64,000 bases of DNA, taken from a virus. Its lineage: Duplodnaviria > Caudoviricetes. The translations under genes were made by a program, and so were the position numbers. Below the pieces are notes generated by a model that saw nothing but the letters and a program-made list of their open reading frames with translations, searched no databases and had not been told where the DNA came from. Shown here piece by piece: positions 4,770-58,659 of this stretch (position 1 is its first letter; every line of letters starts with the position of its first letter). Location of the stretch: positions 1 through 64,000 of the IMG/VR virus record IMGVR_UViG_3300014039_000027, one strand, 5' to 3'.

Positions 4770-4918
4770 TCTTTCACCTCGCTTTCCAGCATCGCTAAAT
4801 CTTTTTCGTATTTGTCGGCCTCCGTATGCTGCCCTATGATTGCCGCCTGTTCCCGGCATATAGTCAGCAGCTCTGCACATACACCGGCCAGCTTTTCAAT
4901 GGTCTCCTGCAAGGGCAT
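4757..4918 (-). CDS. Hypothetical protein, 53 aa, overlapping RT stop
   Basis: MPLQETIEKL...; overlaps both neighbours. Confidence 0.5.
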   Translation of the reverse strand: MPLQETIEKLAGVCAELLTICREQAAIIGQHTEADKYEKDLAMLESEVKECTR

Positions 4919-6044
4919 AGCGCCAGCCCTCCTTATCCGGGTAAAAACCAAATATGCTTTTAAAGTATTCCGCCGACTTTCGCACGACCTTATGGCTGTT
5001 CCCCCGGCTCATGTGACCGCAATAGGAAGCCCAGACCGGGCGCACATCTGCAAGTGAAATTTTCCCAGCGTTTACCATCTTTTGGAGCTTTGGCAATTTC
5101 TTACGCAGACGCGCCGTAGCCTCACGCCCCATTCGCATTTTCACGCCGCCGTCCGGTTTTGTGTGGTACCGGCACTTAAGAAAAACAGACTTCTCTACGG
5201 GCGATATGCCCGTTTTCTTTTCGTTCACCACAATGCCGATTTCTGATGCCTTGCGGCGTATTTCTGCTAAACACGCTTCCAAATACGCCCGGCTTTCGTG
5301 CATAGCGTATCCGTCATCGTTATACCGCCCGTACCCTTTCAGTCGTAGTTTATCCTTGCATAGGTGGTCAATAGGGGATGCCAGTAGCAGCGCGCAAGTT
5401 TGCGATACCTGGCTGCCCAGCCCCAACCCCTTGTTGCCAAAATCCCGCACAAACCGGCTCACCTCGTCTGCTACGCGCTGGTCGTGAAACAGCCTGCGAT
5501 TTGCCTCAAAAATCGGCTCATGTGGTGCCGTATCAAAGAATTTACGGAAGTCGTACCGCAGCACATAGCCGCCCCGCTTTGCCTGCTTTGAAATTTGCTG
5601 CTTGTACCGCCGCATAGCAAAATCCATTCCTTTACCGCTTAGACTGGCGGAGTTGTCGTAAATGAACGTTGCTCGGTATATCGGCGTCAGCGCATAGTCG
5701 CACAGGCATTTTTGCACAACGCGCTCTGAGATATGTACCGCGCGGATACACCGCGCTTTCCCCCTTTCATGCACCACAAACTCGTGAAATCCTTTATGCT
5801 TGAACGTTCCGTTCATTACTTCGGTGTGTATGTCTGCTACGCGCACCAGCATATTGTTCATCAGGCTTTGCGTACTGGCTTTCCATTTCACGCCTTTGCA
5901 GCATTTCTTGGCGGATTTCCATAGGTGCATAAAACTGAATACTTCTTCAAAGCCGCCACACGCCATGCTCCGTTCTATACATTTGCGCTCTCGTTCAGCC
6001 TTCCGTCTGCGGTATCTCTTTTCTCGTCTTTCTGCGTTTGTCAA
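4896..6044 (-). CDS. DGR reverse transcriptase
   Basis: RYNDDG (YxDD) and GLGLGSQVSQ (DGR-type SQ motif); likely TTG start at 6044 with GGAGG RBS; adjacent to TR and avd. Confidence 0.93.
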   Translation of the reverse strand: MTNAERREKRYRRRKAERERKCIERSMACGGFEEVFSFMHLWKSAKKCCKGVKWKASTQSLMNNMLVRVADIHTEVMNGTFKHKGFHEFVVHERGKARCIRAVHISERVVQKCLCDYALTPIYRATFIYDNSASLSGKGMDFAMRRYKQQISKQAKRGGYVLRYDFRKFFDTAPHEPIFEANRRLFHDQRVADEVSRFVRDFGNKGLGLGSQVSQTCALLLASPIDHLCKDKLRLKGYGRYNDDGYAMHESRAYLEACLAEIRRKASEIGIVVNEKKTGISPVEKSVFLKCRYHTKPDGGVKMRMGREATARLRKKLPKLQKMVNAGKISLADVRPVWASYCGHMSRGNSHKVVRKSAEYFKSIFGFYPDKEGWRYALAGDH

Positions 6045-6244
6045 TATGCGCCTCCGTACAGTCTTATTGTCGGGTGCGGATTCTAACTGCGTAGTAGCCG
6101 CCATGAAACCGGGTGCCGCACACCCACCGGCCATGCACGTCAGCGTCCGGCGGCGTATCATCAGGGGCGAGTTTAACGGGTAAAGCGCTCCTTCGCTCAA
6201 AGCGTCGTTTTCAGCATTTGCCTACTAAGTCCTGCCTGTGCAGA

Positions 6245-6375
6245 GCGAATCCGGGGACAACGCCATTCGAGTTGCTGGCGTTGTTGTTGTTGATGCTGCC
6301 GCTGGTGTTGACATTGTAGAAGTTCGTCGTGTTGTCGAAGACCGCGTCACGCAACCACCAATTCACCGCAGAACC
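6245..6375 (-). repeat. DGR template repeat (TR), 131 bp
   Basis: Ungapped match to 6916-7046; 11 AAC/AAT codons; all 14 differences fall on TR adenines. Confidence 0.97.
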
Positions 6376-6426
6376 TCCCGCCGACACCACCGCCGCACAG
6401 ATACAGCGCTTTTCCTATATAAAGGC

Positions 6427-6852
6427 TCACGTCAAGCCCTTATACCGTTCCTTGTCGCTTTTCCGTACTTTGCCGATCAATTTCGCCTCCGCGCTGATAA
6501 GCTCTCCGTGTTTTTGCATGGCGTTTGCCACCCATTTATAGCGTTCTTCGTCATTGATAAGCTCCTCATATAGGTCTTCCAAATCGTCCGTAAGGTTTTG
6601 CAAAACCACGTTGGCGCGTCCCAAATAATCGGCACGTATCTGCGCCTCGTGCGCATTGTGTACGAACGTGTTGTTGGCGGCCTTTACGCTGTGCAATACC
6701 TCTCGCGCTTCTTCATAAATGGGCGCAAGAAGGAAAAACTGCAATCGCTTTGGGCACTTTTTGACCACTGTAAGCGTGTGCTGTTTCAGCTCTCTTGCCG
6801 TTTGGATAAACTGCATGGACGATTCGCCGCGTTGGCTCTTGGGTACGGACAT
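6427..6852 (-). CDS. avd: DGR accessory variability determinant
   Basis: 141-aa helical protein starting MSVPKSQRGESS, between target gene and TR. Confidence 0.85.
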   Translation of the reverse strand: MSVPKSQRGESSMQFIQTARELKQHTLTVVKKCPKRLQFFLLAPIYEEAREVLHSVKAANNTFVHNAHEAQIRADYLGRANVVLQNLTDDLEDLYEELINDEERYKWVANAMQKHGELISAEAKLIGKVRKSDKERYKGLT

Positions 6853-6866
6853 AGCGTTTCCTTCCC

Positions 6867-6895
6867 GCCACCGCCCCATTTGAGGGGCGGATGGC
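6867..6895 (-). promoter_or_regulatory. DGR target-recognition hairpin downstream of VR
   Basis: CCGCCCC-ATTTGA-GGGGCGG, extendable by GCCA/TGGC, about 20 nt after the target stop. Confidence 0.75.
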
Positions 6896-6908
6896 TTTTG
6901 ATGATAGA

Positions 6909-7889
6909 TTAAAATGCGAAGCCGGGGACAACGCCATACGAGTAGCTGGCGGAGTAGTTGTAGATGCTGCCGCTGGTGTAGACAAGGTAGAAGTACGTCG
7001 TGGAGTCGAAGACCGCGTCACGCAACCACCAAGTCACCGCAGAACCGGAAGCGTTGTTTTTGATCTTACTGTTGCCCGCAGCGTACCAGTTGTAGCCGCT
7101 GGTTCCCACATCGTTTTGGCTGTGTATCGCCAGTGTGTCTGTTGTTTGTTGGTTTGTGTTGGTGTTCGTTTTGCTGACGAGACTGCGCGCTTTAAGCGCC
7201 GCTTTCCACGCCGAGGGTATCGTATTGAGCAATGTCGTCATTGTGGAAGTTCGCATCAGCGAGGCGTTCCATCCCCCATCGCTTGTATTGCTGTTGTTCA
7301 TAGGGGCGCTGCTCACCGTTGTGACTGTGTCAAACGTCATGCCGCATTTCCCGGTCGCCGTTTCGCCTCCGTATGCCGCCGCATCCGCCAGCGTATCGGT
7401 GTTAAAGCTGATAAGCCGTGCCTGTACCGTGGTGTTGTTGATGGAAAAACTCATCGTGTCGCCGATGGTCAGTTTGCGACTGTCCGAGCCAAAGTCCAGA
7501 TATACCACGCTTGTGGTGCGCGATATAGCACTGTTGTTGGAAATGGCCTCCGCATACAGCGCCATCAGGTCGGGCGTCACGCCAGCCAAACCGTTGGCGT
7601 ATGTCACCCCGGCGGTTGCGCTCGTGTTTGCCACAGGCCGCAGCGGCAGCTCTATGACGGGGGGTGCGGGGTATGTTTTGATCGGGCTTTCCTTGCCGTT
7701 CAGCGTGGCTACGATAGACCACGTCCCCGCCTTGTTCAGTTTCAGCGTCGCTTTGCCGTCGCTGTCAGCTACAGCGGTGACAGAACTTGTCCCCAGCGTC
7801 GCGGTCACAGTCGCATTGGCGGAAGTCTCCACAATGTACCCCGCCCCACTTCCGCCTCCTGCTACCAGCGACCTACCGATAATTACCAT
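6909..7889 (-). CDS. DGR target: putative receptor-binding protein, Ig-like N-terminus and C-type-lectin-fold (DUF6273-like) C-terminus
   Basis: VR at the 3' end; MNNSNTSDGGWNAS and WWLRD...GVVPGF motifs; last gene of the tail module. Confidence 0.85.
   Translation of the reverse strand: MVIIGRSLVAGGGSGAGYIVETSANATVTATLGTSSVTAVADSDGKATLKLNKAGTWSIVATLNGKESPIKTYPAPPVIELPLRPVANTSATAGVTYANGLAGVTPDLMALYAEAISNNSAISRTTSVVYLDFGSDSRKLTIGDTMSFSINNTTVQARLISFNTDTLADAAAYGGETATGKCGMTFDTVTTVSSAPMNNSNTSDGGWNASLMRTSTMTTLLNTIPSAWKAALKARSLVSKTNTNTNQQTTDTLAIHSQNDVGTSGYNWYAAGNSKIKNNASGSAVTWWLRDAVFDSTTYFYLVYTSGSIYNYSASYSYGVVPGFAF
6916..7046 (-). repeat. DGR variable repeat (VR)
   Basis: Encodes GSAVTWWLRD...SYSYGVVPGF; differs from TR only at TR adenines. 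Confidence 0.97.
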
Positions 7890-17872: not shown

Positions 17873-18988
17873 TCAGGGCTCTTTAACGCTTACTGCACAT
17901 TGATCCCTAAACGTAATTCCTTCGTATACGAAGGTCACGTTAAGGTCTGCGTCACCAGCGGTGGCCCCTGCGGAGATCAGACCTGCGGCGCTCACGGTGG
18001 TGCCGCTGGGTGCGCCGGTCAGGCTGTAGGCGCACTTGGCGGGGTCCAGCACCGCCAGCTGGCCGTTCTCCAGCACCGCCTGGGGCTTCACCTGCACCGT
18101 GCCGCTGACCGGCACGTTGATAACGCCGCCGATGGCGGTCACAAGGCCCGTCACCACCTCAGCGCCGCTGTCAGGCACATACACGTACCAGCTCAGGGTG
18201 CCGCCGGCGCAGTCCTCGCACTTGTCGGAGATCACGCTCTCGTCGATGCTCAGTGCGCGGCCCACGATGGCCGTGGTGTCGTAGTTGCTCTGGCTTCCGG
18301 TCACGGTGGCGGTGTCCGCCTGCAGCTTCAGGGGCACGTTCAGGTACAGCCAGCCCTGGCGGGTGCCCTCGTTGGTCTTGGCGTTCACGTTGCCGTACAC
18401 GGGCATCTGGGCTGTGAAAAGGCCCACCTTGCCGTTCATGCCGGTGGTCAGCTTGCCGCACATGGCGCTGAGCTTGTTTACGAAGTACCACACCTTGTAC
18501 TCCGTGCCGCTTACCGCGGTAAATCCGCTGATGGTGCCGTCCTCCGCGATCTCATAGGCAATGCCGCCCTGCTGGATGCCGGAGGCTTTCTTGGTCTCCT
18601 GCACGTAGGCGTAGGGCTTTGCCATCGCGTACTGCGCCACGGGAGCGCCGTCGGTCACGTCCACCTTCAGCACGGCGCTGTCCGCCGTCACCACCTGGCA
18701 CACCGGGGCCACGGCGTTGTAGGTCACAGCGCCCCCCACACCCGCCATCTTCGTCCGCAGGTCGAAGTTGGCCTGGGTGAAGTTCACCTGGATGTCCGGG
18801 TCGCTCTCGATGATGGTGGCGATACCGTTGTTCAGTCCCGCACGCAGGGGGTCCGCGTTCACCGTCACGGTGATGTTGCCCTCCTGGAACTTATTGCTGC
18901 TCAGCAGGACCTGACCCGTTTCCATGTCGGCGAACTGCGCGGCGCAGATGCCGCGGGTATACAGTCTCGGATCGGTAAAAGTAATCAT
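17873..18988 (-). CDS. Major tail protein with C-terminal Ig-like domain
   Basis: ATG 18988 with AAGGAG RBS; 371 aa; position; Ig-like C-terminus. Confidence 0.7.
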   Translation of the reverse strand: MITFTDPRLYTRGICAAQFADMETGQVLLSSNKFQEGNITVTVNADPLRAGLNNGIATIIESDPDIQVNFTQANFDLRTKMAGVGGAVTYNAVAPVCQVVTADSAVLKVDVTDGAPVAQYAMAKPYAYVQETKKASGIQQGGIAYEIAEDGTISGFTAVSGTEYKVWYFVNKLSAMCGKLTTGMNGKVGLFTAQMPVYGNVNAKTNEGTRQGWLYLNVPLKLQADTATVTGSQSNYDTTAIVGRALSIDESVISDKCEDCAGGTLSWYVYVPDSGAEVVTGLVTAIGGVINVPVSGTVQVKPQAVLENGQLAVLDPAKCAYSLTGAPSGTTVSAAGLISAGATAGDADLNVTFVYEGITFRDQCAVSVKEP

Positions 18989-19012
18989 TCTGCTTTCACT
19001 CCTTTTTGATAT

Positions 19013-19086
19013 AAAAAATGGAGGCAAAGCCCCGGTCTCCCGTTGGCTTCGCCCCACTTGGCGTTCCGCCCTGCCCGCTTGCAGGG
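19013..19086 (-). terminator. Hairpin-linker-terminator element C, upstream of major tail gene
   Basis: CCCTGC-AAGCGG-GCAGGG, 13-nt linker CGGAACGCCAAGT, GGGGC stem with GAGA loop, CTCCATTTTTT. Confidence 0.7.
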
Positions 19087-19099
19087 TCTATTCCCTTCT

Positions 19100-27109: not shown

Positions 27110-27184
27110 TGGCACGGACGCGAGGACTCGAACCCCGAACTGCGGTTTTGGAGACCGCCGTTTTCCCGCTTAAACTAAATCCGC
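27110..27184 (-). tRNA. trnW: tRNA-Trp (CCA)
   Basis: Cloverleaf; anticodon stem GCGGT/ACCGC with loop CTCCAAA; GTTCGAG T-loop; encoded CCA; one U7-C66 mismatch. Confidence 0.9.
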
Positions 27185-30480: not shown

Positions 30481-31173
30481 TCACTCCCTCCTATGAATTT
30501 GCTTGTTTGCCGCCTGCTCCTGCCACGTTGCCCAGCGGACATTCCCCGGTTCGTAGTCCCCGTCAACATTGATTCTGTCAATGGTCATCCCCGGCTCTCC
30601 GTAATGCGGCAATCTGCAAACGTAGTCGTAAAACGCTTCAAAACTGTCGCGCCATTCTTCGCAGACTCGGATGCCCCTGCCGCCATACCACTTGTATGCA
30701 GCGGCGTTTGGATTTCCACACCGGTGCTTCATTCCGCACCATACGCCGTATATCTTTTCGGCAGACATTCCGTGCGTTGTAACTTTCTCTGCCGTCAATC
30801 GCGTTTCTACGCTCTTGCATCCGCAGCTCTGAGATGCTCCAAAATTCAACGCGCCGGTATGGACTACCGAAGTCCGCCCGCAATCGCAAATACAGTTCCA
30901 TGCGGAGTTCCCTGCGTAAGAAAGAACCGTCAGTCGTCCAAACCGCCTACCGATCAGATTTTCTTTAGGCCCCTGCTCAAGTTTTGCGTTACGCTGCAAT
31001 CTTTTTGCATCGCAACCGCAAGAGCGCGTCCCTCCGCTATTCAAGCTATCCGTTCGTACCGCTTTTTCTTTGCCGCACTCACACTTACACAGCCAGTATT
31101 TTTTACCCGCAGGGCGAATCAGTGTCCAAAGTCCATAGCGCTCTCCCGGCGCATTTTTTCTCGGTCTGCCCAT
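30481..31173 (-). mobile_element. Free-standing HNH homing endonuclease 2
   Basis: CKCECG/CICDCG-SCGC repeats; YGGRGI; TIDRINVDGDYEPGNVRW. Confidence 0.85.
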
Positions 31174-31271
31174 ATTCAATTACCGCCTTTCGTAATCAGC
31201 CTTCTTTTCGAAACAAGGGGAAGGCGGCAAGGCTAACCGCTTTTCGGGAGCTACCCTATCCCCATGTTTTT

Positions 31272-31826: not shown

Positions 31827-31904
31827 AAAATGAAAATGGAGCCGCAGCCGGTGTTCTCCACTGGCGCAGCCCCATTTGGCCCTTCTCGCAGTCCCTTTAC
31901 CGCG
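31827..31904 (-). terminator. Hairpin-linker-terminator element B, upstream of head genes
   Basis: CGCGG-TAAAGGGA-CTGCG, 13-nt linker AGAAGGGCCAAAT, GGGGC stem with GAGAA loop, CTCCATTTTCATTTT. Confidence 0.7.
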
Positions 31905-31949
31905 ATTATTCGTTTTTCGGTCCCCACTGTCGCAGGGGCTCTCGCCGCC

Positions 31950-32126
31950 CTATCGCTCTGTCGGCAGCGGCATGGCCGCGCCTTTCTTTTTCTTCACCGT
32001 GTGCACGGTGTGTGCCTTTATGGCCAGCCCGTCCGCCGTCCGGCGTATCTCCACGTCGTTGCCGCGGGCCAGTTCCCGGTTGATCTCGTGCAGGTCGTCC
32101 GCCGTCAGTATCGCCGTCATGCTCAT
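31950..32126 (-). CDS. Small protein B, 58 aa, paralog of 53709-53852
   Basis: ATG 32126 four nt after portal stop; 15/47 ungapped identities with small protein A. Confidence 0.7.
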   Translation of the reverse strand: MSMTAILTADDLHEINRELARGNDVEIRRTADGLAIKAHTVHTVKKKKGAAMPLPTER

Positions 32127-32130
32127 CCTC

Positions 32131-33933
32131 TCAGTCTCCCGCGTCCTCTGACGCTTCCTGTCCCTCGGTCCCCGGCGCTCCCTCCGATGCCGGTCTCCCT
32201 CCGGGGTCTGTCGCTCTTTTGGCCTCCGGCGTCTGACCACCGTTTCCATTTCCGCCGTTCTTTGTCTCCGTGAATGTGGAACTAAGCGGTTTTCTCAGGT
32301 CCATGATCCCGGATTCCGTCACCGCGCGGCTTATGGACATATCATCCAGCAGGGACATATTGTTCATAGCCAAATATTTCAGCGTTGCCGGCAATATGCC
32401 CAGCGTCATATCTTTTCTCAGGCTTTCTCTCAAATCATTGTCCGTGGCAATGTCCCCGAAACACTCAAATCGCCAGGAAAATTTCAGGTTCAGCCCGTCC
32501 ATGATGCCCTGCATCATGCGCTCGTAGCAGCGGTATATCTGCTCAGCGAATTTGCTCTCTATCTGCAAGCTGATGTTCGCCACACCCGCCCGCGGCTCGT
32601 CGCTGGTGGGTATCAGGGCAGAAAGGCCCGCCTTCGCCATGGTGTAACCGTACCCGGCGGAGCTTATCTTTGTGGCGCTGGGCGCCTCGGCCAGCTGGTG
32701 CAGCGACATATTTTTCAGCGGCGCTGCGTACCAGCCTATGCCGCTGGTGTTGTTCTCCGCCAGCTCGTCGTAGAACCGCGTGCGGAAAAGCTCCCACCCC
32801 GCGTTGCTCAGCTTGTAGGCGTCGGACAGATTGCGGTTGCTGTCGTCCGCGTACTCTATCTCGCCCGTCAGCAGCGAGATCAGCGGGTTCTGTACCAGCT
32901 CCAGCTGTATCTGCTCGTACTGCGCGATCTGTATAAACGACAGGAAAAGCCCCGTCAGCGGCGATACCACCGCCGTCTGCGCGTCGTCTATCTCGAAGGG
33001 GTATACAGCGTCCACCGGCAGTGTCACCCAGTAGCACCACTTCCCGTTCTGATAGTACACGTCCGGGTCTCCCGGCAGCAGTCCGCCGTCACGCTCCGCC
33101 GCCGTTTTCAGCGCCGCAAACTTGTTCATGTTGATGGTGTTCTTCGCCGCGTATACATACCGGGTGCCCGCGCCCTTGGGCGGCCTTGCCGCCACCTGGG
33201 TGAATATCCCCCAGTACGGCTTAAACAGGTCTCCGAACTGCGCCGGTTCGCACCCCGGCTTCATGAAGTACATCATGTTGAAGGCCACCGTGTACTTCGA
33301 CACACTGTTGAACCCCACGATCTTTACCCAGTCGCTGGGCAGCTGCTGCATAAAGGCGTAGTTCACCTTGTTGTGGGGCTTGTCCACGCTTACGCGGGGG
33401 TAGTAGAATACCTTGCCCTCCTGCACCGCCTGTCCCGCCAGCTTATGGGCGGTGGCCTTTACGTCCATTTTCCGCCGCAGCTTCTCCAGCAGCTTCCACT
33501 CCCGCCAGAACTCGTCGTTCTTCGCCGTGTCCTTGTCGGTGAACTCCGGCGCGATGTAGCTGTGGTATGTCAGCAGATCCTGGTACATCTTCCGGGTGTG
33601 GAAAAGCGGGTACGCGGTAAATTCCAGCCCGTGCTCCACCTGCCGCAGCCCCTGCTCGTTGCCCAGGGGGGCGGTCAGCATCTCCGCCACCTTGTTTTTC
33701 GTAAAGTCCTCCGGCAGCGAGGATATGGCCTGTACGCGGCGGTTCTGAATGTAGGGGTTCGCCCGCGCCGCCTGGCTCATGCTCACCCTGCTGAAGGCGC
33801 TGGCCAGCGCCCCTGCCGGCATATTGCCGTACTGCTCCGCCAGCGCGTTGAACCTCTTGAATATGTCGGGGTAGGTGCCGCAGGCCACGCTCTGCAATTC
33901 ACTTGTCAGGTTTCTCCGCTTCTCCTGCTCCAT
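32131..33933 (-). CDS. Portal protein, 600 aa
   Basis: Size and position after terminase, before head genes. Confidence 0.75.
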   Translation of the reverse strand: MEQEKRRNLTSELQSVACGTYPDIFKRFNALAEQYGNMPAGALASAFSRVSMSQAARANPYIQNRRVQAISSLPEDFTKNKVAEMLTAPLGNEQGLRQVEHGLEFTAYPLFHTRKMYQDLLTYHSYIAPEFTDKDTAKNDEFWREWKLLEKLRRKMDVKATAHKLAGQAVQEGKVFYYPRVSVDKPHNKVNYAFMQQLPSDWVKIVGFNSVSKYTVAFNMMYFMKPGCEPAQFGDLFKPYWGIFTQVAARPPKGAGTRYVYAAKNTINMNKFAALKTAAERDGGLLPGDPDVYYQNGKWCYWVTLPVDAVYPFEIDDAQTAVVSPLTGLFLSFIQIAQYEQIQLELVQNPLISLLTGEIEYADDSNRNLSDAYKLSNAGWELFRTRFYDELAENNTSGIGWYAAPLKNMSLHQLAEAPSATKISSAGYGYTMAKAGLSALIPTSDEPRAGVANISLQIESKFAEQIYRCYERMMQGIMDGLNLKFSWRFECFGDIATDNDLRESLRKDMTLGILPATLKYLAMNNMSLLDDMSISRAVTESGIMDLRKPLSSTFTETKNGGNGNGGQTPEAKRATDPGGRPASEGAPGTEGQEASEDAGD

Positions 33934-52958: not shown

Positions 52959-53621
52959 TTAAAGTCGTAATATTGCCGCCGGGGGAACCCCGTTGAGCAC
53001 GTTGTTTTGGTAGAAGTCCGTTTCCTTTTCCAGCAGCCACGCCATGTCCGCTTCCTGTTCCGCCCTCTCGAAGTGATAAGTGCGTATGCTCAGGTCACCG
53101 TCCATGTTCTCCAGGCTTGCCATCAGGTCCGCAAACTCATACCCGGTGGCCAGCATTTGGTGCAGGATCTGCGCCATATAATGGCTGGGGATCTGCCCGT
53201 CCCACTTCGCCCAGCCCGCCTTGCCGTTGGGTGTCGCTGTCTTGATCTCCAAAATGCCCCTCCGCCCTCGCTCGTCAGTGATCTCGCCGTCCAGCGTGGC
53301 GAATATAAATGGCCGTTCTTTCTGATACAAAATGTCGTAGGGGTAGTAGTCCACCGTGCGCCCCGGGTGCATAGCGGTGTACAGCCCCCGCAGCGCCGGT
53401 TCCATCCGCACGCCGCGGCTCACCGCCGCGCTGCCGCTTAGGTCCTTGGGCTTGTCCGCCCCCACCTTCAGCCGCCACAGTTCCAGTTTCGACAGCCACG
53501 GGGACATTCCCACTACCGCTGCGGCTTCGCTGGCGCCTATTCCCTGCATACGTCCGGCCAACCAGTCCTCCCGGTTCTCAAAGTGCAGCCGTTCCAGTTC
53601 TTTTCCATCTCCTTCCCACAA
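52959..53621 (-). CDS. YqaJ/lambda-exonuclease-like protein
   Basis: RMQGIGASEAA, ATLDGEI, ILEIKT, YMAQILHQM. Confidence 0.88.
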   Translation of the reverse strand: MWEGDGKELERLHFENREDWLAGRMQGIGASEAAAVVGMSPWLSKLELWRLKVGADKPKDLSGSAAVSRGVRMEPALRGLYTAMHPGRTVDYYPYDILYQKERPFIFATLDGEITDERGRRGILEIKTATPNGKAGWAKWDGQIPSHYMAQILHQMLATGYEFADLMASLENMDGDLSIRTYHFERAEQEADMAWLLEKETDFYQNNVLNGVPPAAILRL

Positions 53622-53623
53622 AC

Positions 53624-53703
53624 AAAAAGAGCGCCGCCAAGCGGTCCGGTTTTCCGAACCACTCGACGACGCTCCGCCCTTCCCGCCAACTGACTTAGGC
53701 GGG
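53624..53703 (-). terminator. Hairpin-linker-terminator element A, upstream of recombination and replication genes
   Basis: CCCGCC-TAAGTCAGTT-GGCGGG, AAGGGCG linker, 21-bp stem with G-U pairs, TTTTTGTTT. Confidence 0.8.
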
Positions 53704-53708
53704 GTACG

Positions 53709-53852
53709 CTATTTGGTCTTTACCTCTGCTCTGCTGACCTTGACGATTTTCACGCCATCCTTCAGGGGTATCAGCTCAATGCGAAAGTTCTTCGCCAGTG
53801 CCGCGTTGATAACGGCGATTTGTTCTGTTGTGATATGCGCGGTTTCTTTCAT
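53709..53852 (-). CDS. Small protein A, 47 aa, paralog of 31950-32126
   Basis: Read by hand: MKETAHITTEQIAVINAALAKNFRIELIPLKDGVKIVKVSRAEVKTK; start overlaps previous stop. Confidence 0.7.
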   Translation of the reverse strand: MKETAHITTEQIAVINAALAKNFRIELIPLKDGVKIVKVSRAEVKTK

Positions 53853-54859: not shown

Positions 54860-55659
54860 TTTCTCCCCTCCCTGTTGCTTAAAAACCTGTCCACGAAGTA
54901 CGTCTGCCCGCGGCCCGTTACCTTCACTGTTTTGCTGACGGTAACGGAACCGTCCGACCGGGTAATGGCCGTTTCCTTGATGCTGAAAAGCCCCATTTCC
55001 ATCGACCGCTGCGTGGGCATATTGTAGTCTGTTCCATTGCGGCGGATCAGATAGCCGTTGTCCCGGAGCCATCCAAACAATCGGTTCTGTCCGATGTTCA
55101 CGCCGTTCTGCCGCAGCAGCTTCGCCAGCTCACCCACCAGGATGGAGGTGTGGGACGCGCTTACAGCATCCGCAAACAGTACCTTTGGCCTGTCCGCTTC
55201 CGCCTGCTGCTCCAGCGCCCTGCGCTTCTGCTGCTCCTGCTTGAGTGTTGTGGCCAGCTGGATAATGTAGTCCGGGTCTGTCAGCGTCCGTTCGATGACC
55301 TCCGGCGTCATGTAAGCGCCGTTGCGCCGAATGGAGGGCAGGACTTCCTCCGTTACCCAGTCGGTGAACTTCTCCGCCGTCGGCAGCTTCGAACCAAACA
55401 CCAGCCGGTAAATGTCGCTTTCGGGGATAAATGACATTCCCGTTGCTCGCGTCGCCGGCGTTCCATCCGCCCTTTCTCCGGTTTGTACCCATGCGTCGCG
55501 TTTCACGACACCCCTGCAATGGCGCAAGATGGCATCACGAGGGTTGCTATATCCCAGCGCCCGTGCTACGTCTGTAGCGCAAAAAAGAATCCTGCTGTTT
55601 TCCTCGATAGTGCGAATGCTGCCGAACTCCGGATTGCTGAAAACCTGCATCTCGTTCAC
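54847..55659 (-). CDS. Phage antirepressor, Bro-N plus ANT/KilA-C
   Basis: FSNPEFGSIR, DVARALGY, EVLPSIRR, PKVLFADAV, VTGRGQ. Confidence 0.9.
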   Translation of the reverse strand: MNEMQVFSNPEFGSIRTIEENSRILFCATDVARALGYSNPRDAILRHCRGVVKRDAWVQTGERADGTPATRATGMSFIPESDIYRLVFGSKLPTAEKFTDWVTEEVLPSIRRNGAYMTPEVIERTLTDPDYIIQLATTLKQEQQKRRALEQQAEADRPKVLFADAVSASHTSILVGELAKLLRQNGVNIGQNRLFGWLRDNGYLIRRNGTDYNMPTQRSMEMGLFSIKETAITRSDGSVTVSKTVKVTGRGQTYFVDRFLSNREGRKCRE

Positions 55660-55865
55660 TTTCGCCCCTCCCCCTTCATCAGCTCATCCAATGTGCAGCG
55701 GTACAGCGCAGACAGTTTATGCAGGATTGCTACGGAAGGATCGGACTTTCCTGTCTCATAAAGACTCACCGCCGAAACGCTTACTCCCAGCAGGTTCGCC
55801 ACTGTTTTCTGCGAATACCCCGCTTTCTTTCTCTGCTCCTTGTAGCTCAATTTCTCATCTCCCAT
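55656..55865 (-). CDS. Cro-like XRE regulator
   Basis: SQKTVANLLGVSVSAVSLYETGKSDP; divergent from cI. Confidence 0.85.
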   Translation of the reverse strand: MGDEKLSYKEQRKKAGYSQKTVANLLGVSVSAVSLYETGKSDPSVAILHKLSALYRCTLDELMKGEGRK

Positions 55866-55885
55866 CAAAAATAATTGAGAAATAC

Positions 55886-57540: not shown

Positions 57541-58659
57541 ATGTCAACGAAATGCAAGTCCTGCAAGCGCGAAGTTCCCGACAACGCCACCTTCTGCCCC
57601 TGGTGCGGCCACAAGCAGGTGCGCGAGCGCAAAAAGGACGGCGTTATCAAAGTGCCGGAACCGAAACAGCTCCCCTCCGGCAGCTGGCGCATTTACCTTC
57701 GCGCGGAGCAGCAGTCTGTTACCGAACCTACCAAAGACCGCTGCATCGCCAAGGCCAAGGCCATCCGCGCCGGTTTTGTGGAGCAGCAGAAAAAGGCCAA
57801 GGACGAGCCCCTTCTGCTCTCCGAGGCCATTGAGAATTATATCACACGCCGCGCCCTGCTCTCCCCCAACACCATCCGCGGCTACCGCATCTATCAGAAA
57901 AACCGGTTCAAATCCTGTCAGGGCGTTAATATCCGCGAGCCGGTGGATTGGCAGTCGTATATAAACGAAGAGGCCGCGCTCTGCGCCCCTAAAACGCTGA
58001 AGAATGCCTGGGGCTTTATAAAGTCCGTCTTAGAGGAAAACGGCATCGCTGTTCCAAAAGTAACACTGCCGAAGCTTCCCGTTTCCGAGCATAAGTGGCT
58101 CACGCCGGAGCAGATCATCGTATTCTGCAAGGCCATCGAGGGCAAGCCCTTCGAGAAGGAAGCGCTTTTTGCCCTCCACAGTCTGCGCCGCGGAGAACTG
58201 CTGGCCCTCAAATGGGAGGACATAGATTTCAAGTCCGATTCCTTCCGCGTTCATGCCGTCATCGCGCAGAACGAAAAAAACGAGTACGTGGAGAAAATAA
58301 CGCCCAAAACACAAAAGTCCAACCGCGTCGTCCCCTTTATGATCCCGCGCCTCCGCCAGCTCCTCAAGGAGGAAAATGGCCCCAAAGGCAAGCGCGTGTC
58401 CTATCAGCCGCCAAACGGCCTCTGGCGTAAGTTCAACGATGTCTGTGAAGCAAACGGGCTCCCCAAGGTCGGTGTGCATGGCCTGCGCCACAGCTTCGCC
58501 TCCCTGGCCTACAGCCTCGGCTTCAAGGAGGAGGAATGTATGCGTATCGGCGGCTGGTCAGATTACAGGGTCATGCACGAAATATATACCCACCTCGCCG
58601 CCCGCGATATAAACGCCCGCGTCAAGGAGATGGAAAATTTCTATAAAGAAAACCTGTGA
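57541..58659 (+). CDS. int: Phage integrase (tyrosine recombinase) with N-terminal Zn ribbon
   Basis: LRRGELLAL, PKT, HGLRHS, GGWS, IYTH; attP immediately downstream. Confidence 0.93.
   Translation: MSTKCKSCKREVPDNATFCPWCGHKQVRERKKDGVIKVPEPKQLPSGSWRIYLRAEQQSVTEPTKDRCIAKAKAIRAGFVEQQKKAKDEPLLLSEAIENYITRRALLSPNTIRGYRIYQKNRFKSCQGVNIREPVDWQSYINEEAALCAPKTLKNAWGFIKSVLEENGIAVPKVTLPKLPVSEHKWLTPEQIIVFCKAIEGKPFEKEALFALHSLRRGELLALKWEDIDFKSDSFRVHAVIAQNEKNEYVEKITPKTQKSNRVVPFMIPRLRQLLKEENGPKGKRVSYQPPNGLWRKFNDVCEANGLPKVGVHGLRHSFASLAYSLGFKEEECMRIGGWSDYRVMHEIYTHLAARDINARVKEMENFYKENL

Follow-up and report, generated by a model that had tools for sequence, protein, structure and literature searches.

Two paralogous mini-proteins are encoded in the gut phage genome analysed here, each followed by a dual-hairpin RNA related to the Rfam motif gut-2, with the second hairpin overlapping an intrinsic terminator. 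By analogy with ANTAR systems, the explanation we lean towards is that the proteins clamp the two hairpins so that RNA polymerase reads through, which would be passive, one-site antitermination with feed-forward timing of successive gates. It is also conceivable, and is proposed here tentatively, that the pair represents a new class of minimal (~45 aa) phage RNA-binding antiterminators targeting gut-2 RNA, with paralogous protein-RNA pairs that differ in loop sequence, and orphan RNA copies acted on in trans, gating a transcription axis of more than 50 kb sequentially.

The window, by which we mean the whole stretch of DNA analysed, represents 64 kb from the start of an IMG/VR phage record that is 80.7 kb long and rated as complete by CheckV. 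Nearly all of the window genes are carried on the minus strand and unidirectional transcription spans more than 50 kb. The early end is marked by the integrase and a Cro-like HTH gene, and the tail and lysis genes are located near 2 kb of the window. The early block runs from the HTH gene through a Bro-N/KilAC antirepressor gene and small ORFs to P0002 and a terminator, followed by a YqaJ-type exonuclease gene and a DUF1351 gene, and the late block from a terminase-like gene through the portal gene to P0001 and a terminator, followed by a 177-aa ORF, an HNH gene and the head genes. Each module is thus placed before a major gene block, as the initial annotation had it, with the early copy preceding the YqaJ-type exonuclease and early genes and the late copy preceding the head genes. 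The genes concerned are the following:

57541-58659, plus strand: integrase gene, marking the early end
55656-55868: Cro-like HTH gene, also marking the early end
53709-53852, minus strand: P0002, early-type small protein of 47 aa, the start of which overlaps the stop of the upstream 132-aa ORF (ATGA)
52959-53606: YqaJ-type exonuclease gene, located after the early terminator
32131-33933, minus strand: portal protein gene (phrog_2739, E 1e-29), directly upstream of P0001
31950-32126, minus strand: P0001, late-type small protein of 58 aa, starting 5 nt past the portal stop codon

The gapless alignment of the two proteins reported in the initial annotation (15 identities over 47 positions) was reproduced, and at least 15 identities at any offset were reached in only 1 of 20,000 shuffles. 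BLASTP gave no alignment between P0001 and P0002, the homology being visible at the profile level only, where the family profiles A1 and A2 match each other with an hhalign probability of 95.4% (E 1.9e-8). The same elements are predicted for both proteins by AlphaFold2, namely a helix at residues 9-20 and two strands at residues 24-30 and 33-39 forming a beta-hairpin, with a mean pLDDT of 88 for P0002 and 74 for P0001. Because of the gapless identities, the profile match and the shared predicted fold, P0001 and P0002 are true paralogues. Both are basic, and P0001 has in addition a disordered tail with the basic stretch KKKK. Only close relatives of P0001 were retrieved by a word-indexed search, and an exhaustive search with P0002 returned 55 representatives (50% clustering). 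The residues R24, P29 and R41, which are invariant in the early type, are not retained in the late type according to the family alignments.

Neither protein belongs to an informative family in Pfam, NCBIfam or PHROGs; P0002 weakly matches phrog_29211, a family of unknown function, and a search of the Atlas returned only clusters of "hypothetical proteins". No significant relative emerged from a PDB profile search, Foldseek or VIA-align (best Z 3.5), so RNA binding is not inferable from the fold. Matches of P0001 to TraI_middle and to small terminases had E values above 0.1 and were uninformative, and those of P0002 to the giant proteins P0039 and P0055 (RTX/Ig-repeat proteins) were judged to be chance matches to repeats. 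Three database proteins of 129-136 aa (P0094, P0096 and P0099) contain an N-terminal Cro/C1-type HTH domain (PF01381) joined to the small-protein domain, and in P0098 the small-protein domain is followed by a DnaJ-like CxxCxGxG zinc-finger region; these are either genuine fusions or merged gene calls. Given the rare HTH fusions, the domain could be a dimerisation or DNA-related module.

Both genes are followed by a hairpin, the common sequence GAAGGGC and a strong intrinsic terminator, just as described initially, and GAAGGGC can now be resolved into a linker and the 5′ arm of a second, 4-bp hairpin that overlaps the terminator. The RNA features of the window, including a third copy in the tail region, are as follows:

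53665-53703, minus strand: early RNA element, consisting of hairpin 1 CCCGCC-UAAGUCAGUU-GGCGGG, linker AAG and hairpin 2 GGCG-GAGCGU-CGUC
53620-53675, minus strand: early intrinsic terminator with a 22-bp stem and a U-tract, overlapping hairpin 2
31886-31905, minus strand: late RNA hairpin 1, UCGCGGU-AAAGGG-ACUGCGA
31868-31881, minus strand: late RNA hairpin 2, GGCC-AAAUGG-GGCU, the loop and 3′ arm of which form the base of the terminator 5′ arm
31827-31877, minus strand: late intrinsic terminator with a U-tract, excluding hairpin 2 and exceeding the hairpin-2 fold in stability by about 12 kcal/mol
19049-19089, minus strand: third RNA element, CCCUGC-AAGCGG-GCAGGG, CGGAA, CGCC-AAGUGG-GGCG
19012-19059, minus strand: terminator of the third copy, overlapping hairpin 2 of the third element

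A stem of 6-8 bp and a hexaloop, often with a flanking U-U mismatch, make up hairpin 1, and a 3-nt purine linker (AAG, AGG or GAA) connects it to hairpin 2, a 4-bp stem with a hexaloop similar to the first. The loops conform to the consensus RARNGK with A2 and G5 invariant; most early-type modules have AAGCGU/GAGCGU and the late type has AAAGGG/AAAUGG, while AAGUGG is present twice at locus L065. A gapless 8-6-8-3-4-6-4 frame fits 61 distinct sequences and all three window copies. A correlation between loop and protein type (Thr at the turn with GG-ending loops) is suggestive and has exceptions, so it was kept out of the evidence.

Two hexaloop hairpins, one of 8 bp and one of 4 bp, connected by about 3 nt rich in purines, were found in all window copies, and this architecture is characteristic of gut-2 (RF02990), an orphan Rfam motif typed as "Gene; sRNA" with no listed partner or function. 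The late copy matches the gut-2 model with 27.3 bits (E 3e-5 in the genome) against a gathering score of 39.8, matches are absent for the early copy up to E 10 and for the third copy up to E 1, while the elements after homologous genes at L065 (46.1 bits) and L032 (41.9 bits) pass the gathering score. Since the window copies remain below 39.8 while L065 and L032 exceed it, the former are divergent gut-2 relatives rather than formal members. They differ from gut-2 as described in having a mini-protein gene upstream and in overlapping a terminator, and the Rfam model does not cover the early-type (GAGCGU) and third-copy variants. The module had initially been called possibly undescribed, which has to be given up for the RNA, as it belongs with gut-2, and may still apply to the pairing: literature keyword searches on phage small-protein antiterminators found no description of a mini-protein paired with such an RNA, and a function of gut-2 or the P0001/P0002 family was found described nowhere in the literature consulted, in which neither the name gut-2 nor the peptide motif of the family occurs; the main text of Weinberg 2017 does not mention gut-2. 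The family of phage mini-proteins of about 45 residues, with one helix and a beta-hairpin, is regarded as undescribed.

Profile matches of the P0002 family defined 80 viral loci, in which nearly every family gene has a very stable terminator within about 100 nt downstream. Almost every distinct subfamily shows the dual hairpin after the gene, and compensatory changes are numerous. An RNA model, R1, was built from 12 viral sequences and scores the early element of the window at 28.5 bits. When applied to 28 Oscillospirales loci chosen by protein alone, from genomes of Oscillospiraceae, Oscillibacter, Ruminococcus, Acutalibacter, Dysosmobacter and Butyricicoccus, R1 matched 24, always on the strand of the gene and always downstream of it, which bears out the linkage of homologues to the RNA element that the initial proposal presupposed. 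In the bacterial alignment, which was fitted to the R1 model and so somewhat favours the structure, 98.1% of cells pair and all 11 of the 11 pairs show double changes; these values were reached in 0 of 500 shuffles, and slid controls gave 32-50% pairing. Conversely, a pattern scan for the RNA in viral contigs yielded 81 instances, and for about 71 of these the gene lies upstream (65 with a family ORF no more than 450 nt away and 6 with one at 0.5-1.5 kb); the remaining matches mostly lack hairpin complementarity, as expected of chance, or lie at truncated ends of loci. A structured RNA copy with no family gene close upstream of it was found at L182/L184. Going by these genomic comparisons, the protein-RNA linkage is real in both directions.

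Extra genes occupying 0.5-1.5 kb lie between the small-protein gene and the RNA element at L143, L153, L171, L179, L183 and L128, and at L075 a 62-aa HTH gene has copies of the element on both sides; insertions at this junction seem to be tolerated or targeted.

The linkage might be no more than synteny, the dual hairpin and terminator being a cis switch or insulator operated by a host factor or by the RNA alone and the protein having another role, for instance as a dimerisation, DNA-binding or assembly module. We consider this unlikely, though it is the kind of explanation that the HTH fusions, a fold without an RNA-binding relative and the orphan RNA copies without an adjacent gene would fit. 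It is at odds with a two-way linkage that persists across divergent subfamilies and in two unrelated contexts, early and late, and with the presence of the protein in every RNA-bearing phage among the sampled loci that has enough upstream sequence, L182/L184 excepted. In addition, paralogous proteins within one phage accompany different loop sequences.

Hairpin 2 and the terminator form a classical antiterminator/terminator arrangement in which, to judge from base pairing, the two folds are mutually exclusive. At essentially all loci the 5′ arm of the terminator starts within loop 2 or the 3′ arm of hairpin 2, and the 4-nt 5′ arm of hairpin 2 is a repeat of a segment of the terminator 3′ arm, both of them pairing with one and the same stretch. 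The terminator fold is favoured by 10-18 kcal/mol in the three window copies, and when hairpin 2 is enforced only a shortened leftover hairpin, detached from the U-tract, can form. At two loci with no terminator, it is the Shine-Dalgarno sequence of the following gene that hairpin 2 covers, and in such variants protein binding would repress rather than activate. In addition, L075 carries a second copy of the canonical type, with a terminator, 240 nt downstream.

A second conserved small hairpin with a U-run (GGUAAAACCCGC...GCGGUUUUUAUA) was observed at L028, L053, L229, L239, L075 and other loci, about 10-50 nt past the gut-2-linked terminator and before the scaffold gene; it could serve as a tandem terminator or as a leader element of that gene.

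The strength of the window structures (z -3 to -5.7) and the terminator at their end, together with the Rfam typing of gut-2 as an sRNA gene, would suit a stable 3′-end RNA or sRNA, or a retroregulatory structure determining the stability of the upstream mRNA, with the protein being a chaperone or unrelated. Such a role is rather improbable, as neither an sRNA nor a 3′ stabiliser needs a conserved and covarying hairpin 2 that excludes the terminator, and as the position of hairpin 2 over the ribosome-binding site of the next gene in the variants points to cis control of what lies downstream.

The whole window was scanned both with the descriptor and, with filters off, with a second RNA model, R2, made from 61 sequences, none of which come from the window or are related to the third copy. 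The R2 scan detected exactly three elements, with scores of 36 bits for the late copy (E 2.6e-7), 26.4 bits for the early copy (E 6.7e-5) and 23 bits for the third copy (E 4.6e-4), the best background score being 9.9 bits. The third element is located in the tail region between a 268-aa ORF and a 371-aa ORF (17873-18988), about 2.7 kb upstream of the tape-measure gene, and no family ORF was found within 1.5 kb of it; the 80.7-kb genome contains only two family ORFs. The two complete modules of the initial annotation, taken there as a two-stage system, are therefore to be replaced by three RNA gates and two proteins. One protein gene together with two RNA copies was also found in other phages (L142, L170, L182, L075/L150 and L270), and one protein with several RNA sites is what is expected of a trans-acting regulator. 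The third gate is presumably served in trans, probably by P0001.

Two module contexts recur across the loci. In the early one an antirepressor gene and small ORFs precede the module, which is followed by a RecE- or YqaJ-type exonuclease gene, and in the late one the module is located between the portal gene (and head-morphogenesis protein gene) and the genes for the scaffold and major head proteins; close relatives of the window phage have the early and late copies on one contig. The core of the initial proposal, a small protein coupled to an RNA that would control read-through of a terminator, in early and late copies, is well supported on comparative grounds by the two-way linkage, the covariation and the conserved overlap. 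At L065 a tRNA gene and a GP20-b leader RNA (RF03003) are found between the module and the scaffold gene.

The closest parallel to this layout is provided by the targets of ANTAR regulators (EutV, AmiR, NasR), in which P1 is the upstream hairpin, P2 forms part of the terminator, and stabilisation of both hairpins by the regulator keeps the terminator from forming; this dual-hexaloop logic is experimentally established (PMC8934654, PMC3369931). Common to both are two hairpins in tandem, whose hexaloops are similar and whose linker is short and fixed, a second hairpin embedded in the 5′ arm of the terminator and the terminator as the default fold, and the mutual exclusion of hairpin 2 and the terminator stem that is typical of ANTAR systems was found here as well. 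In both, one regulator has several terminators and there are variants overlapping ribosome-binding sites (PMC8934654, PMC3369931). The hexaloops differ, with A1 and G4 in ANTAR targets and A2 and G5 (RARNGK) in the present elements. No ANTAR domain (PF03861, a three-helix bundle) was detected in P0001 or P0002 by a Pfam scan at E ≤ 1, and a PF03861 scan of the phage genome gave no match, as was also the case for the control genomes. The mini-protein, by contrast with an ANTAR regulator, is an unrelated helix plus beta-hairpin of about 45 aa with no Pfam match or sensor domain, and its gene lies immediately upstream of the target in a phage operon, for which reason time or dose is a more probable input than a metabolite. 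By this comparison the module is ANTAR-like in layout, with an unrelated mini-protein, and is not a member of the ANTAR systems.

Because of the ANTAR-like anatomy of the RNA, the mini-proteins are proposed to bind the loops and hold hairpin 2. When no protein is available, the far more stable terminator would fold and transcription would end. P0001 or P0002, on the other hand, would bind both similar hexaloops of the gut-2-type dual hairpin in the nascent transcript, so that hairpin 2 would be held and the lower 7-11 bp of the terminator stem blocked, leaving a hairpin about 10 nt away from the U-tract and allowing RNA polymerase to read through in a passive, single-site, ANTAR-like mode. As each protein gene is located upstream of its own gate in the same operon, the module would act as a feed-forward timer, with the downstream genes being switched on only once the upstream products accumulate. 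All three gates lie on one long minus-strand transcription axis, on which the 53.7-kb gate would separate immediate-early genes from recombination and replication genes, the 31.9-kb gate terminase and portal genes from head genes, and the 19.1-kb gate head/neck genes from tail genes.

In the initial annotation lambda N/nut and the pLS20 conAn system had been taken as models. Lambda N is a disordered arginine-rich peptide that recognises a GNRA-like pentaloop (boxB) together with boxA and acts processively at a distance with Nus factors. It resembles the present case in that the gene of a small phage protein is located at the early/delayed-early border near an RNA hairpin and terminators, as a temporal gate, and differs from it in that a folded structure is predicted for the mini-protein, the RNA carries two hexaloops and the element lies over each terminator. 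The conAn system of pLS20-type conjugative plasmids is a bipartite protein and RNA antitermination system of Firmicutes mobile elements, in which the protein gene is likewise followed by its own RNA and ConAn1 corresponds to Pfam pXO2-34 (PF17362) (PMC8191782). No match to PF17362 was found in P0001 or P0002 by a Pfam scan at E ≤ 1, and conAn2 is large and processive on distant terminators, in contrast to the window RNA of about 40 nt. Processive antitermination of either type, with a protein-RNA complex riding with RNA polymerase and suppressing many terminators, thus has only a slim chance of being correct here: it could account for a small basic protein located, like N by nutL/nutR, beside an RNA hairpin where early and delayed-early genes meet, and for one-direction transcription over more than 50 kb, but a processive system has no need of an element that overlaps each terminator and recurs at every gate, and the lack of a PF17362 match, the RNA of 40 nt and the predicted helix and beta-hairpin (pLDDT 88), as opposed to an N-type arginine-rich peptide, also speak against it. 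The anatomy points instead to passive, site-specific control of the ANTAR type, so the two models were set aside.

Passive antitermination by a protein that stabilises an RNA overlapping the terminator is also shared with the CAT/RAT systems (BglG, SacY, LicT) and with HutP. RAT is a single hairpin bound by a dimer of CAT domains in proteins with PTS-regulated domains, and HutP is a hexamer binding UAG repeats. No CAT_RBD or HutP domain was detected in P0001 or P0002 by the Pfam scan, and the window RNA is a dual hairpin, not a single RAT hairpin. Ribosome-mediated attenuation of the leader-peptide kind, in which translation of the small ORF up to its stop codon would select the RNA fold, is hardly credible. 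It would suit those loci at which the stop codon lies within or 5 nt before hairpin 1, but the stop-to-hairpin distance varies from -17 to about 1500 nt, the protein is conserved in sequence and fold and the third element has no nearby ORF.

Several observations were counted against antitermination by the mini-proteins, namely the HTH fusions, the absence of significant structural relatives, the Shine-Dalgarno variants and the lack of conservation in the late type of residues that are invariant in the early type. It also seems counter-intuitive that the late gates, with their terminators, precede genes for abundant structural proteins (scaffold, capsid and probable tail tube). If the mini-proteins do constitute a new class, the result would be a self-timed expression cascade made of attenuators alone and widespread in gut Oscillospirales phages. 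Confirmation would give an orphan Rfam motif a function and a protein partner, add an RNA-binding antiterminator fold that is new, very small and distinct in origin from ANTAR, CAT and HutP, and mean that temperate phages of gut Clostridia (Oscillospiraceae, Ruminococcus and Acutalibacter, dominant but poorly studied) order early, head and tail expression with neither N nor Q of the lambda type. A 45-residue protein with a 40-nt RNA switch would then also be an attractive compact part for synthetic circuits in Firmicutes, possibly as orthogonal pairs.

Some other features were noticed in the window. Just ahead of the late hairpin, at 31933-31905, there is a sigma-70-like match in 9 of 12 positions; this was put down to chance, as 4 such matches were found against 1.8 expected. 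An int-alpA RNA (RF02996) is located at 31200-31266 on the minus strand (50.5 bits against a gathering score of 35.8), between the 177-aa ORF and the HNH gene and just downstream of the late module; the early element also matches int-alpA weakly (15.2 bits, E 1.4). The HNH endonuclease gene directly following this RNA (30481-31179, minus strand; phrog_374, E 1e-77) has a lower GC content and is inserted among the head genes. Within the head-gene block, just downstream of the gene for a probable major capsid protein of 405 aa, there is a tRNA gene at 27113-27184 on the minus strand (49.3 bits with the Rfam tRNA model). An RT-2 RNA (RF03077, 105.6 bits) at 6029-6239 on the minus strand overlaps the 5′ end of the 434-aa ORF at 4896-6200 and the sequence just upstream of it, which is consistent with the diversity-generating retroelement noted earlier at 4896-7889.
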